Source of the DNA: Candidatus Micrarchaeota archaeon
GTDB taxonomy: Archaea > Micrarchaeota > Micrarchaeia > Micrarchaeales > CABMGC01
DNA: 64,000 nt
Assembly: GCA_021848065.1 (NCBI GenBank)
Contig: JAJZNA010000010.1
Location: 34,586-98,585, forward strand
Direction of reading: 5' to 3'
Position numbers and translations under genes: made by a program
Notes under the pieces: model-generated
Databases searched by the model: none
What the model was told of the DNA's origin: nothing
The model's input: the letters and a program-made list of their open reading frames with translations, nothing else
Shown here: piece by piece, positions 2,927 to 45,394 of the stretch
How the letters are laid out: every line of letters begins with the position of its first letter
Position numbering within the stretch: the stretch's first letter is position 1

Positions 2927-2995
2927 ATTACCAATCTCTATTGCACACCAATAAATAAAAGGTTATTCGGACTTATTTAAGCATAGAGTGGTTTC

Positions 2996-4246
2996 TTGGA
3001 GATACGTTTTCTTGGCGGGGCTGGAGAAGTAGGCAGGTCTGGAATACTGCTCAAGGACTCCAAGACCATACTGCTCGACTATGGAATAAAGGTTGACGGG
3101 CATACGGAATATCCTGAAAAGGCCGGTAGGGTGGACGCATGCATAGTAAGCCATGCGCATCTTGATCATAGCGGCTTCTCTCCATCGCTTTACCACGAGG
3201 GTTTCCCTCTCACAGTCGCCACGGAGCCTACCATGAAGCTTGCTGAGCTTCTGATCGAGGATTCCATGAAGATACACAGGAAGAAGCACGAGCATGAGCA
3301 CTTCCACAAGGCGCAGCTGCATACCATGATGAACAGGTATCTGCCCCTCCCTTATTCCCAGACCACAGAGTTTGATAGGTATGACATATCGTTGCACAAT
3401 GCAGGTCATATATGCGGAAGCGCAGTAAGCCTCATAGAGAAAAAGGCGAGCGGAAGGAGGCTTGTTTACACTGGCGACTTCAAGATGGAGCCGCAGCTGC
3501 TGGAGAAGGGGGCTGAGGTTGTCAAGAGCAACATACTCATACTGGAATCCACCTATGCAAACAAGGACCATCCGGACAGGGAAGGGCTCATACAGCGGAT
3601 GGTGGACGAAATATGGGAGACGGTGGACAACGGAGGGACAGCGCTGCTGCCTGCGTTCGCTGTGGGAAGGTCGCAGGAACTTCTAGCCATACTCCAGAGA
3701 AGCGGGCTGATAAAGCGTACATTCATAGACGGCATGGCTCGTGCGGCCACGGACATAGTGGCAGGGTATCCGGATTATGTGAGCGACAGGAGCCTGTTGG
3801 AGAACGCCATAAGGAATTCTGTGTGGGTGGACAGCAGGAGGAAGAAGATGGAGGCAGTAGACGGCGGGAATGTGATAGTCACTACTTCGGGCATGCTCAA
3901 TGGCGGGCCAGTTCTCGACTACATAACCAGGTTGAACAGGGAGTCTAGGATATTCATTACCGGATTCCAGGTCGAAGGGACCAATGGAAACAAGATGATA
4001 CAGGGCAGGCCGATAGACATAGATGGCAGGGACTACAGGGTGAGGACTCCTTTTTCAGTTTATGATCTCTCGGCACATGCTGGAAAGAAGGACATCCACG
4101 AATACGTGAAGAGGAGCTGTCCTGAAACAGTGGTGTGCGTTCACGGCAGTGAGGAGAACACATCCATACTTGCGCAGGATCTTAGGGCTGAGGGATTCGA
4201 TGCGTACGCACCGCGGGTAGGGGATAGCATTAGCGTGGAATTCTGA
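2996..4246 (+). CDS. beta-CASP family metallo-beta-lactamase-fold ribonuclease (aCPSF2/RNase J-like)
   Basis: 416 aa with a TTG start. Has the HAHLDHSG MBL motif, N-terminus IRFLGGAGEVGRSG and a beta-CASP-like C-terminal half (SAHAG). Confidence 0.75.
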   Translation: MEIRFLGGAGEVGRSGILLKDSKTILLDYGIKVDGHTEYPEKAGRVDACIVSHAHLDHSGFSPSLYHEGFPLTVATEPTMKLAELLIEDSMKIHRKKHEHEHFHKAQLHTMMNRYLPLPYSQTTEFDRYDISLHNAGHICGSAVSLIEKKASGRRLVYTGDFKMEPQLLEKGAEVVKSNILILESTYANKDHPDREGLIQRMVDEIWETVDNGGTALLPAFAVGRSQELLAILQRSGLIKRTFIDGMARAATDIVAGYPDYVSDRSLLENAIRNSVWVDSRRKKMEAVDGGNVIVTTSGMLNGGPVLDYITRLNRESRIFITGFQVEGTNGNKMIQGRPIDIDGRDYRVRTPFSVYDLSAHAGKKDIHEYVKRSCPETVVCVHGSEENTSILAQDLRAEGFDAYAPRVGDSISVEF

Positions 4247-34265: not shown

Positions 34266-35423
34266 ATGGTAGAGATAAAGTATGCAAACGAGCGGTTCAC
34301 CGTTACCGATCAGTCCAGCGTGGACATCCTTAGACGCGGCCATTTTGGTTCTGTTAACAAATCCAGGCTTACATTATCTCCAGAGGAAGCCCTCTATCTT
34401 ATCGATATGAGGAATGCAGAATGTTTGTCCTCTAACGGTTCAAAGCTACACTTCAATGACGTTGCCGCCAAATTCTGGAAATCTCGGAAGTTCACGGCAA
34501 GATACTTTACCTACAAGGATTGGCGGGATAGGGGGCTTATAATAAAGCCTAATTCCCTGATCCAAGGCCCATCAGAGAGCGCACATCTGAAAGAGTATCC
34601 AAAAGCAGAGCTCAATCTCGGGGCGTACAAGCTGAAGGGGGTGTTTTTCAAATCCGACCTCATCACGATCGTAGAGGGCGGGGATGATGCAAAATCCATA
34701 TACGAAAATCTCTGGCTAGGCCAGTATGGCTCTTACAAGGCTTCGGAGCGCGGGATACTCAACAAGCTCGACATCTATGAGACCATGCTTCTGCTCTCTA
34801 AGGGAAATCTTTTGCTTTCAAACGCCTCAAAGAAGGATATACTGCGGTTTGCATCCACACGAAGGAAGGACTTCCAGCAGCTCTACAGTGTATACTGTGA
34901 CTGGAGGGAGAAGGGCTACGTGATAAAGACCGGATTCAAGTTCGGCACGCATTTCAGGGTATACTTCCCAGGCGCGAAACCCGTTAAGGATGACAAATCC
35001 ACATGGACCCACTCAAAGCACGTGATACATGTATTTCCCAAGGAGTCCAAGCTGCTGATATCAGAATGGGCCAGGGTGATACGGGTTGCCCATTCGGTAA
35101 GGAAGACCTTCATTCTGGCGGTTCCGGGAGCTACAAAGGCGAGGAAGGCAAAGAACGATTATATACTATACCACAGGCGCGGCGGAGATGCCGAGAATCC
35201 CGATATTGATCCGCCAAGGTATGCCATGCTCTCGCTGAGCGAGGAGGAGTACATAGGCGGAAGCGAGCTTGCAGCAGCAATATCTGATGCCATGGGTAGG
35301 AAACTGGAGCTTATCGTGGCAATAGCCGATAGGGAGACTTCCGTAACCTACTACCACGTGCGACAGATAAGGCTCAAGGGCAGCAGCAACGAATACTACG
35401 AGATAGATTGGATGCAGCCGTGA
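34266..35423 (+). CDS. endA: tRNA-splicing endonuclease, three-unit fused architecture (partial N unit + full catalytic unit + C-terminal unit)
   Basis: 385 aa, about twice the M. jannaschii-type subunit. Catalytic unit: WREKGYVIKTGFKFGTHFRVYFPG...HSKHVIHV. Degenerate first unit: WRDRGLIIKPNS. Extra C-terminal unit: YILYHRRG...VTYYHVRQIRL. Confidence 0.8.
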   Translation: MVEIKYANERFTVTDQSSVDILRRGHFGSVNKSRLTLSPEEALYLIDMRNAECLSSNGSKLHFNDVAAKFWKSRKFTARYFTYKDWRDRGLIIKPNSLIQGPSESAHLKEYPKAELNLGAYKLKGVFFKSDLITIVEGGDDAKSIYENLWLGQYGSYKASERGILNKLDIYETMLLLSKGNLLLSNASKKDILRFASTRRKDFQQLYSVYCDWREKGYVIKTGFKFGTHFRVYFPGAKPVKDDKSTWTHSKHVIHVFPKESKLLISEWARVIRVAHSVRKTFILAVPGATKARKAKNDYILYHRRGGDAENPDIDPPRYAMLSLSEEEYIGGSELAAAISDAMGRKLELIVAIADRETSVTYYHVRQIRLKGSSNEYYEIDWMQP

Positions 35424-43107: not shown

Positions 43108-43545
43108 ATGTTTATGGCTGATTATGTTATAGATGGAACTGACAAGGTGCTCGGTAGGGTAGGAAGCCGTGTCGCAAAGCTTCTGCTGCAGGATAACAAC
43201 GTTACAATACTCAATTCCGAGAAGATGGTAATGACTGGCCATCCACAGGACCTGGTGTCAAAATACAAGCAGCTCGTAGAACTGAAGGACAAGGCAAACC
43301 CGGAGCATTCTCCATATTGGCCAAGGAGACCTGACATGTTCGTCAAGAGAGTTATAAGGGGCATGCTGCCTTACAAGAGACCCAAGGGCAAGACTGCATT
43401 CAAGAAGCTCAGGGTTTACGTAGGCGTTCCTGCCACCCTCAAGGACGCGAAGCTGTATGAACTTAAGTCCAAGAACCCATCAGAGATATTTGAGACCACG
43501 ATCTCGATCCAGCAGCTTACAGAAAAGCTGGGCTACAAGCTGTGA
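43108..43545 (+). CDS. rpl13: 50S ribosomal protein L13 (uL13)
   Basis: 145 aa. IDGTDKVLGRVGSRVAKLL...RVIRGMLPYK. Confidence 0.9.
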   Translation: MFMADYVIDGTDKVLGRVGSRVAKLLLQDNNVTILNSEKMVMTGHPQDLVSKYKQLVELKDKANPEHSPYWPRRPDMFVKRVIRGMLPYKRPKGKTAFKKLRVYVGVPATLKDAKLYELKSKNPSEIFETTISIQQLTEKLGYKL

Positions 43546-43865
43546 TAACGATGCATATGTTGTCCTACATACAAAACACATATCTCTCAAACTCCGCAAA
43601 GAACGGCAACCTTAAAAAGGTCAAGGCCGCCCTTAAGCTTGGAGCAGACATGAATGCAAGGACAAATGGATGGACTGCATGGATGCAGGCCGTATCTAAT
43701 GGACATGAAGACATTGCGACATTCCTGGAGATGAAAGGAGCAGAAGTGACCGAATCTGACCGCATAAATGCAGAGATAAGGGCCAAGATGAACAAGGCAT
43801 GCAACGTTATTTCAGGAAGTGCTACAAGGCACATGGCAAGGATGATTAATCACGCAAAAAACTAG
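43542..43865 (+). CDS. small ankyrin-repeat protein
   Basis: 107 aa (alternative ATG starts at 43551 and 43557). SAKNGNLKKVKAALKLGADMNARTNGWTAWMQAVSNGHEDIATFLEMKGAEV fits the ANK consensus (..G..LH.A...GH.....LL..GAD.N). It fills the whole L13-S9 gap. Confidence 0.65.
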   Translation: MITMHMLSYIQNTYLSNSAKNGNLKKVKAALKLGADMNARTNGWTAWMQAVSNGHEDIATFLEMKGAEVTESDRINAEIRAKMNKACNVISGSATRHMARMINHAKN

Positions 43866-43878
43866 CAAGCTGATAGCA

Positions 43879-44418
43879 ATGGCAAATGAATCAAAAGGCA
43901 TTGAAAACTTGGACAAGGAGCTTGAAACGCTTTACCAACCGAAACAAGGCCAGAAGGCCGCAGCAAAAAAGACGGCTACGAGAGCAAAGAAGACCCCCTC
44001 TGCTGCCAAGAAAGCCCCAGTGCTTTCAAAAGGCAAGAGGAAGAGGGCTGTCGCAAGGGCATCACTAATACCTGGACACGGTACTATCCGATTCAATGGT
44101 GTGGCTATAGACCTGGTCAAGCCAAAGGAGATCAGGGAATTCATACTTGAACCTGTACGCATCTCCAAAGCGGCCCGCGACATAGTACACAACTCAGACA
44201 TAAAGATAAGTGTATACGGCGGCGGCACGAGCGGACAAGCTCAGGCCGCAAGGACTGCCCTTGCAAAGGTCATAACCGAAGCGTCAGGCCTCGATTCGTT
44301 GAGGAGCCTGTACATGGAGTATGACAGGACCCTGCTTATAGATGACTACAGGCGTGTAGAGCCTAAGAAGTTCCTAGGACCAAAGGCACGTGCAAAGTTC
44401 CAGACGTCATACAGGTGA
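43879..44418 (+). CDS. rps9: 30S ribosomal protein S9 (uS9) with a K/A-rich N-terminal extension
   Basis: 179 aa. Core is [12 protein letters not shown]...[18 protein letters not shown]...KFQTSYR. The extra roughly 45 aa is [30 protein letters not shown]. Confidence 0.9.
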
Positions 44419-44431
44419 AGAGGTTTTTGCG

Positions 44432-44632
44432 ATGATGATACCAATACGATGTTTCTCCTGCGGCCAGGTTATCGCCGACAAGTGGGAGGAGTTCAATACC
44501 AAGGTAAACTCCCAGAAGGCAGATTCGGACAGCACTCTGACCGCTCTTGGAGTGAACAGGTACTGCTGCAGAAGGATGCTCGCAAGCCACGTCGATTTGA
44601 TAGACGAGGTTATAAACTACAGCAGAAAATAA
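44432..44632 (+). CDS. rpoN: DNA-directed RNA polymerase subunit N (Rpo10)
   Basis: 66 aa from ATG 44432. [21 protein letters not shown]...RYCCRRML zinc-binding motif. Confidence 0.9.
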
Positions 44633-44671
44633 ACATACATTTAAAAAGCAATAGTGCTTAATATAAGCTGC

Positions 44672-44766
44672 GGGGTCGTCTGCTAGCTTGGTTAGGCTCT
44701 GTGCTTAGGGAGCATAAGACCCGAGTTCAAAATAAGCGAATGCTTATGAAAGTCTCGGCGACCCCG
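44672..44766 (+). tRNA. tRNA-Pro with a 21-nt T-loop (59/60) intron; anticodon reads AGG at canonical positions 34-36
   Basis: Acceptor GGGGTCG/CGACCCC, anticodon arm TGTGC-TTAGGGA-GCATA, T stem CCGAG/CTCGG. The T loop TTCAAA...T is interrupted by 44732-44752. The mature length would be 74 nt. Confidence 0.8.
44732..44752 (+). other. non-canonical tRNA intron (position 59/60) in a strict hBHBh' motif
   Basis: Outer helix is the T stem. Central helix is TTCA (44726-29) / TGAA (44747-50). Bulges are AAA (44730-32) and AGT (44751-53). Inner helix is TAAGC/GCTTA with a GAAT loop. Confidence 0.75.
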
Positions 44767-44779
44767 ATCAGGTGGAAAA

Positions 44780-45394
44780 ATGTCAAACGAACTGTTGATA
44801 GACCAGGCAACGTACTTAGAGGCAGGAATACACATAGGGACAAAGATAAAGACCCCAGGAATGAAGAAGTTCATCTACAAGGTAAGGGAAGACGGTCTGT
44901 ACCTGCTGGATCTCAACACCATAGACCAGAAAATAAAGAACGCGGCAAAGTTCCTCGCCCAGTATGAGCCTGGGGAGATAGTCGTAACCGCATCAAGAAT
45001 ATACGCCATAGCGTCCGCATCAAAGTTTGCAGAGATAATAAAGGCCAAGATGCTGAGCGGCAGGGTTGTACCTGGAATATTCACAAACCCTCACAGGGAG
45101 GACTTCATGGAACCTGGCATACTCTTGCTAAGCGACACTAGGAACGAGAGGCAGGCAGTGAAGGAGGCCAGTAAGACAAACATACCTATAGTTGCCCTGT
45201 GTGATACTGACAACTGGATAAAATACGTTGATCTTGTCATACCTTGCAACAACAAGGGAAGGCGCTCACTCGCACTTATCTACTACCTCCTGGCAAGGGA
45301 GTTCCTCAAGGAGAAAGGGTTAATAAAGTCAAACGAGGAATTCAATTACAAAGTCTCCGACTTCGAAGCAAAGGTGGAGATGAAGGCGAAGTAA
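44780..45394 (+). CDS. rps2: 30S ribosomal protein S2 (uS2)
   Basis: 204 aa. LLEAGIHIGTK...DGLYLLDL...LLLSDTRNERQAVKEA...IPIVALCDTDN. SD-like AGGTGG at 44770-44775. Confidence 0.9.
   Translation: MSNELLIDQATYLEAGIHIGTKIKTPGMKKFIYKVREDGLYLLDLNTIDQKIKNAAKFLAQYEPGEIVVTASRIYAIASASKFAEIIKAKMLSGRVVPGIFTNPHREDFMEPGILLLSDTRNERQAVKEASKTNIPIVALCDTDNWIKYVDLVIPCNNKGRRSLALIYYLLAREFLKEKGLIKSNEEFNYKVSDFEAKVEMKAK

Follow-up and report, generated by a model that had tools for sequence, protein, structure and literature searches.

A tRNA-Pro(AGG) gene between rpoN and rps2 of a Micrarchaeota genome, split in its T loop by a BHB intron

Main

The closest described relative of the gene reported here is the pre-tRNA-Pro of ARMAN-2 (Candidatus Micrarchaeum acidiphilum), which carries strict-BHB introns at positions 53/54 and 59/60 (Fujishima et al. 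2011, NAR 39:9695, Fig. 1C; PMC3239211). In the pre-tRNA-Cys of the same organism the 59/60 intron is relaxed and 13 nt long, and the ε2 EndA cleaves it in vitro; the ARMAN-2 intron sites overlap those at which introns are mainly inserted in archaea with an (αβ)2 EndA (PMC3239211). Broad substrate specificity is conferred on the ε2 enzyme by the ARMAN-2-specific loop (ASL). The catalytic residues and the ASL lysine were defined in Hirata et al. 2012; there, the narrow-specificity AFU EndA cleaved a strict BHB and failed on a relaxed T-loop substrate. That introns at non-canonical positions need broad-specificity enzymes is a generalisation made in the literature (PMC3239211; PMC5829648).

The gene lies in a 64,000-nt stretch of DNA (the window, meaning the whole stretch analysed) and is very probably a functional Micrarchaeota (ARMAN-2-like) tRNA-Pro(AGG) gene with a 21-nt BHB intron at 59/60, as judged from its sequence and its relatives. 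The T-loop 59/60 intron of this lineage's tRNA-Pro was already published in 2011, which the initial annotation had overlooked (PMC3239211), and the window gene is an orthologue or close analogue. It shares with the ARMAN-2 pre-tRNA-Pro the phylum, the tRNA family, the 59/60 site, the strict hBHBh′ motif and the ε2 type of EndA, and the two-intron form occurs in 18 relatives of the window's organism. It differs in having the 59/60 intron only and in its anticodon, which is AGG rather than GGG, the anticodon given for ARMAN-2 by the paper's label. The ARMAN-2 pre-tRNA-Cys is alike in T-loop insertion position and enzyme family, and its relaxed hBH type recurs in many tRNA-Pro orthologues (11–13-nt inserts). 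It is, however, a different tRNA, and the window intron is strict with a 5-bp inner helix, so that relaxed specificity is not in itself required.

Two further systems are more distant. The non-canonical BHB introns of Thermoproteales and other Crenarchaeota share the splicing signal, the chemistry and the use of sites outside the anticodon loop (PMC3239211; PMC4033280), but that lineage is unrelated and its enzyme is an (αβ)2 heterotetramer with a Crenarchaea-specific loop, in contrast to the three-unit homodimer with the ASL. Some of the Thermoproteales introns were apparently transposed recently, whereas the window's intron is vertically conserved across the phylum sample. ARMAN-4 and ARMAN-5, with their tRNA-Pro(AGG) and tRNA-Leu(AAG), resemble the window in having a tRNA-Pro with A34 (PMC3239211); they belong to another ARMAN group, however, with an EndA type different from that of ARMAN-2, and the tRNA-Leu of the window is GAG, with G34.

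A tRNA-Pro gene split in its T loop

The locus comprises the following features, all on the forward strand.

44432..44632, +, rpoN (RNA polymerase subunit N), upstream neighbour; PF01194, E=3.8e-27
44640..44647, +, TATA-like box TTTAAAAA, −32 to −25 from tRNA nucleotide 1
44672-44766, +, tRNA-Pro(AGG) gene, from the sequence and from ARAGORN after in-silico splicing
44672..44731, +, 5′ exon, from the acceptor 5′ strand to T-loop nucleotides 54–59 (TTCAAA)
44721..44758, +, hBHBh′ splicing motif, with predicted cuts after 44731 and 44752
44732..44752, +, 21-nt BHB intron ATAAGCGAATGCTTATGAAAG at tRNA position 59/60, the removal of which is needed and enough for detection
44753..44766, +, 3′ exon: T60, CTCGG, CGACCCC and discriminator G73
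44780..45394, +, rps2 (ribosomal protein S2), downstream neighbour; PF00318

The acceptor stem pairs GGGGTCG (44672–78) with CGACCCC (44759–65). After U8 comes a weak D arm (U10·U25, G11-C24, C12-G23, U13·G22), which amounts to a 3-bp D stem. The anticodon arm is formed by TGTGC and GCATA around the loop TTAGGGA, placing the anticodon at A44707, G44708 and G44709 and G37 at 44710, and is followed by a 4-nt variable region. The T stem consists of CCGAG (44721–25) and CTCGG (44754–58), and between its two strands stand TTCAAA, the insert ATAAGCGAATGCTTATGAAAG and a single T. No CCA end is encoded.

Three features of this tRNA are odd: A34, the 3-bp D stem with U10·U25, and G73 in place of the A of some relatives. 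Because all three are conserved in relatives, we read them as traits of the lineage, not of decay. The discriminator at 44766 is G in the window and in about two thirds of the related loci, and A in the others. ARAGORN draws an eighth acceptor pair, C-1:G73, which we dismissed; position −1 does not covary with the discriminator across loci, so the pair is probably not real.

The initial annotation described a tRNA-Pro with a 21-nt intron at 59/60, embedded between rpoN and rps2. Every coordinate that it gave agrees with the sequence, the two neighbours are identified by PF01194 and PF00318, and the intron call is borne out both by ARAGORN after excision and by the orthologues. It had also held that none of the other five tRNAs in the window has an intron; this is borne out, and all five have the T loop TTCAAAT.

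Detection requires removal of the intron

As it stands in the genome, the locus yields no tRNA from ARAGORN or from the Rfam tRNA model, even at E<=10; the Rfam cmscan of 251 nt at this threshold returned a chance sRNA match only. ARAGORN in intron mode (-i), also with lowered thresholds, gave no match on the unspliced locus, because only anticodon-loop introns are modelled. Deleting 44732–44752 produces a 74-nt cloverleaf with the T loop TTCAAAT, which ARAGORN calls as tRNA-Pro(agg). The ARAGORN intron search proposed in the initial annotation is thus without a call on the unspliced gene and succeeds once the 21 nt are removed. Rfam covariance scoring was applied to a natural intronless orthologue (L038) as a stand-in for the spliced sequence; this gene scores 52.7 bits on the Rfam tRNA model (gathering score 29) and is likewise called tRNA-Pro(agg) by ARAGORN.

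We scanned for BHB-like motifs with G-U pairs allowed, an outer helix of at least 5 bp, an inner helix of at least 3 bp and an intron of 11–150 nt. The forward strand of the window holds 53 such motifs and ten shuffles hold 43–73, a chance frequency at which we dismissed the motif as stand-alone evidence. In-silico splicing was carried out on 8,324 BHB-like candidates from both strands, strict and relaxed hBH, with ARAGORN run on each product. Excision creates a new tRNA in one of the 8,324, that of 44732–44752. Three other ARAGORN calls after in-silico splicing were set aside as artefacts, as they overlap known intronless tRNAs. The placement of the motif, unlike the motif itself, is beyond chance. 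Among these 8,324 candidates there was no further intron-containing tRNA in the window, within the reach of a scan that covers single introns of up to 150 nt and misses genes with two introns or longer ones.

On its own the window gene opens no new question, and its main value is practical, as a tRNA-Pro that standard finders miss. ARAGORN and Rfam both miss this tRNA-Pro(AGG), the isoacceptor for CCU, and genomes of this lineage would score as being without it unless a BHB-aware search is used.

The splicing motif

In the predicted hBHBh′ fold the T stem (CCGAG/CTCGG, 5 bp) serves as the outer helix. The central helix has 4 bp, TTCA (44726–29) with TGAA (44747–50), and is flanked by two 3-nt bulges, AAA (44730–32) and AGT (44751–53). 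The inner helix, TAAGC (44733–37) with GCTTA (44742–46), has 5 bp and is closed by a GAAT loop. The geometry is 3-4-3 and all 14 of the 14 pairs are Watson–Crick, so the helices and bulges of the strict motif claimed at the outset are where they had been placed. If both strands are cut after the second nucleotide of the bulge, excision gives, in silico, the TTCAAAT loop and the 74-nt tRNA that had been predicted. The same loop occurs naturally in the four orthologues without a 59/60 insert (L038, L032, L044 and L057).

For the isolated T arm the BHB conformer has a computed energy of −11.3 kcal/mol against −13.1 for the MFE fold, and is thus less stable by 1.8. In the MFE fold the T stem is kept, the central helix is opened and the inner hairpin is one pair longer (6 bp). 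As the MFE fold does no more than add one pair to the inner hairpin, the BHB conformer is predicted to be accessible in the precursor.

No second copy of the intron turned up in the window when as many as 3 mismatches were allowed. Its sequence is unique there, and nothing points to an intron family that is dispersed or mobile.

A T-loop intron series across Micrarchaeota

The best homologue of the S2 protein has 94% identity, and those homologues that are named by source belong to Candidatus Micrarchaeota or Micrarchaeaceae. A genome scan based on an S2 alignment gave 80 loci (L001–L080), nearly all titled Micrarchaeota. Both place the organism among the ARMAN-type archaea of the Micrarchaeota. 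The same tRNA stands directly upstream of rps2 in 76 of the 80 loci, and over the aligned stretch its 5′ exon is 88–100% identical in these 76. The remaining four are L036, which has no upstream sequence, and L048, L069 and L070. In the MAGs of L048 and L069 (about 2960–3000) rpoN runs straight up to rps2 and the tRNA is missing from between the two, and in L070 the upstream neighbourhood is different; judging from these loci, the tRNA-Pro of the three genomes must be elsewhere or absent. The 76 genes fall into four forms.

59/60 intron only: 54 of 76 loci
53/54 and 59/60 introns: 18 of 76 loci (L009, L012, L014, L016, L018, L025, L039, L043, L046 and nine more: L050, L052, L055, L061, L062, L066, L068, L075, L080)
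53/54 intron only: 3 of 76 loci (L032, L044, L057)
Intronless: 1 of 76 loci (L038)

The 59/60 insert is accordingly present in 72 of the 76 genes, with a length of 11–32 nt and an inner helix of 0–9 bp. We parsed 71 of the 72 inserts, the one in L043 being read by eye, with a layout as in the L051 group. In all 71 parsed loci the central helix is complete, the four nucleotides ahead of the 3′ bulge making four of four pairs with U54–A57 (with an occasional G·U), and excision gives TTCAAAT. All 16 further copies from metagenomes also have a T-loop intron.

Covariation was examined in an alignment of the window and 12 related loci of the 21-nt intron class (n=13). All 377 of 377 pair cells in the 13 aligned sequences are standard pairs, against 38–47% when the partners are slid. 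Double changes affect six pairs, namely four of the five inner-helix pairs, the T-stem pair 52:62 (alignment columns 53:84; A-U in 7 sequences, C-G in 6) and one anticodon-stem pair. On four of five measures 0–1 of 500 shuffles reached the observed covariation; on the fifth, further pair types, 139 of 500 did. The apical tetraloop of the intron is hypervariable across the aligned loci. This pattern has the signature of selection that acts on BHB splice geometry and not on intron sequence, and it would not fit a decaying insertion. From its distribution, the 59/60 intron is best read as ancient in the phylum and vertically inherited.

Strictness varies within this one gene. Many 59/60 introns are 11–13 nt long, lack a real inner helix and are therefore of the relaxed hBH type (among them L049, L074, L063, L060, L056, L076, L053, L047, L045, L041, L034, L008 and L046), and the strict 21-nt form is found in the window's close relatives, which yields a natural strict-to-relaxed series. 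The 53/54 intron, present in 21 of the 76 related genes, is 11–20 nt long and ends in ...GGGAA; its central helix would be CCCG (48–51) with CGGG. It is enriched with the variable region CATGAC (13 of 25, against 2 of 31 for TAAGAC), which lets T44 and A57 form an outer-helix pair. The window gene has no 53/54 intron: CCGAG is followed directly by TTCAAA.

The series points to an old 59/60 intron that almost all sampled members of the phylum share and that drifts between strict and relaxed BHB, while the 53/54 intron comes and goes. It may be useful for studying the substrate tolerance of ε2 EndA. With this 76-genome comparison, the window gene is a further, well-supported case of ε2 endonucleases occurring together with non-canonical tRNA introns, as is known for Micrarchaeota.

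The splicing endonuclease

The window also encodes the enzyme expected to act on this substrate.

34266..35423, +, EndA, ε2-type (three units, αN-α-βC, in a single polypeptide), 385 aa; Pfam PF01974 and PF02778, the catalytic and N-terminal domains of tRNA-intron endonucleases

An EndA at these coordinates had been named in the initial annotation, and the comparison with ARMAN-2 bears this out. Residues 6–385 align end to end with residues 9–387 of ARMAN-2 EndA (4FZ2, E=1.3e-151). In the alignment the catalytic Y233/H249/K280 correspond to Y236/H251/K282 of ARMAN-2, and K158 of the specificity loop, in GSYKASER, corresponds to K161 in the ASL sequence GTYKVSEH, so that both the triad and the ASL lysine are conserved. 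This EndA is the enzyme predicted to cut the BHB. The initial annotation had further stated that a broad-specificity endonuclease is required. That statement stands as a generalisation in the literature; the window gene does not demonstrate it, because its BHB is strict and the need has been shown for relaxed motifs only. A 2025 paper on the ARMAN-2 EndA structure makes no mention of tRNA-Pro.

Proposed maturation and alternative readings

We propose that a TATA-box promoter of its own, about 30 nt ahead of the gene, drives its transcription, possibly along with that of rps2. In the precursor, the UGAA at the intron's 3′ end would pair with U54–A57 to form a 4-bp helix with two staggered 3-nt bulges. 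This central helix would be stacked between the T stem and the intron hairpin, so that the BHB would form at the expense of the T loop. The homodimeric ε2 EndA could then bind the pseudo-symmetric motif and cut after 44731 and 44752, leaving a 2′,3′-cyclic phosphate and a 5′-OH by analogy with characterised archaeal EndAs. An RtcB-type ligase would join the exons and probably circularise the intron; in the window, a motif-level regex search over 64 kb, a weak test, gave no credible match to an RtcB ligase or to a TadA-like deaminase. After ligation the UUCAAAU T loop could form and allow the T-loop/D-loop tertiary fold. End trimming and, since no CCA is encoded, CCA addition would last give the mature tRNA.

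Other readings of the locus would make it a pseudogene or leave the insert in the mature tRNA. A tRNA-Pro that lost its function when 21 nt were inserted in the T loop, and that is now decaying, would explain why neither standard tRNA finders nor the Rfam covariance model accept the locus, and the weak D stem and an A34 that is atypical for Archaea might seem to point the same way. Yet both of these traits are invariant in the lineage, the gene holds the same position in 76 of 80 Micrarchaeota loci with a 5′ exon 88–100% identical over the aligned stretch, and the insert retains a precise BHB with compensatory substitutions, a splice geometry that a pseudogene would not keep across S2 divergence down to 70% identity; we therefore regard decay as hardly credible. 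Retention of the insert, giving a mature tRNA with an enlarged T arm and an extra hairpin, would accord with the MFE fold, which keeps the T stem and places a stable 6-bp hairpin in the loop. That hairpin, however, ranges from 0 to 9 bp, varies in sequence and length and is absent from many 11–13-nt inserts, while the only parts that stay constant are those that a BHB needs, the TGAA complementary to U54–A57 and the 3-nt bulges. The four orthologues that lack the 59/60 insert have a normal 7-nt loop, and from established tRNA knowledge an interrupted T loop could not make the T-loop/D-loop contacts, so that this reading, too, has a negligible chance of being right.

Even if the insert is excised, the junction might lie elsewhere in the A-run, for example at 58/59 or 57/58, or follow a relaxed-motif register. 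Many orthologues have the 3′ bulge AAT, in which both cuts could move 1–2 nt in the 5′ direction and still give the same product, and for these the A-run leaves a placement from sequence alone ambiguous. The bulge of the window gene is AGT, against which other registers differ from TTCAAAT: only cuts after 44731 and 44752 give this loop, a shift by one giving TTCAAGT, and its junction is therefore unambiguous. With a 3-4-3 geometry, moreover, the cuts must fall between the second and third nucleotides of each bulge (established EndA mechanism; PMC3239211). A different junction in the window gene is accordingly very improbable, and excision of 44732–44752 from a functional tRNA-Pro(AGG) precursor is the reading that we retain.

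A further idea concerns not whether the intron is spliced but why it persists. All sampled Micrarchaeota lineages but one keep at least one T-loop BHB intron in this single A34 tRNA-Pro, which stands straight between its probable promoter and the start codon of rps2, on which ground the intron might be a retained functional element of an unusual tRNA and not a neutral passenger; we hold this to be doubtful. If it were true, splicing might be an obligatory checkpoint that gates T-loop folding or modification, or might gate the release of rps2 mRNA from a shared transcript, or might keep integrases from targeting the gene's 3′ half.

An invariant A34

A34 is unusual in Archaea, and to our knowledge no wobble A-to-I deaminase is known there. 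The anticodon AGG, which the initial annotation had overlooked, is invariant in the window, the 76 genome loci and the 16 metagenome copies (within L001–L096), and the anticodon loop across loci is UUAGGGA or CUAGGGC. In the metagenome collection the same anticodon arm with G34 (GGG) had 0 matches, against 16 for the A34 control. CCC codons are used in the window (118 of 628 Pro codons). The invariant A34 would imply either that Archaea have an A-to-I wobble deaminase not yet described or that A34 decodes without being modified. A34 tRNA-Pro(AGG) has been reported by Fujishima 2011 for ARMAN-4 and ARMAN-5 only (PMC3239211), and in the literature on A34 in Micrarchaeota we found nothing relevant beyond that paper.

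Promoter and flanking genes

The TATA-like box TTTAAAAA is probably the archaeal promoter of the tRNA, and an A/T-rich box at about −33 to −25 is kept in nearly all of 74 orthologous upstream regions. The rps2 start follows the tRNA after only 13 nt (44767–44782) and is preceded by a GGTG Shine–Dalgarno-like motif. From the box and this short distance we deduce a probable promoter of the tRNA's own and a possible co-transcription of rps2 from it. The layout of TATA box, tRNA and short gap to rps2 is common to most related loci; it suggests a tRNA-rps2 co-transcript in which processing of the tRNA 3′ end would create a short rps2 leader.

Upstream, the listed rpoN ORF opens with GTG at 44390 and the PF01194 match begins at ORF residue 16; the true start is likely to be the ATG at 44432. 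Further upstream lie the genes for S9, L13 and L18e and a tRNA-Leu(GAG). Between rpl13 and rps9 there is an additional ORF of 107 aa with ankyrin repeats (43542–43865, +; Pfam Ank_2, E=4e-9). With tblastn, none of the 80 related Micrarchaeota loci showed a counterpart, so the ORF has the look of an insertion into the core operon that is specific to this genome; it overlaps the L13 stop and sits inside the conserved ribosomal-protein/RNA-polymerase operon.
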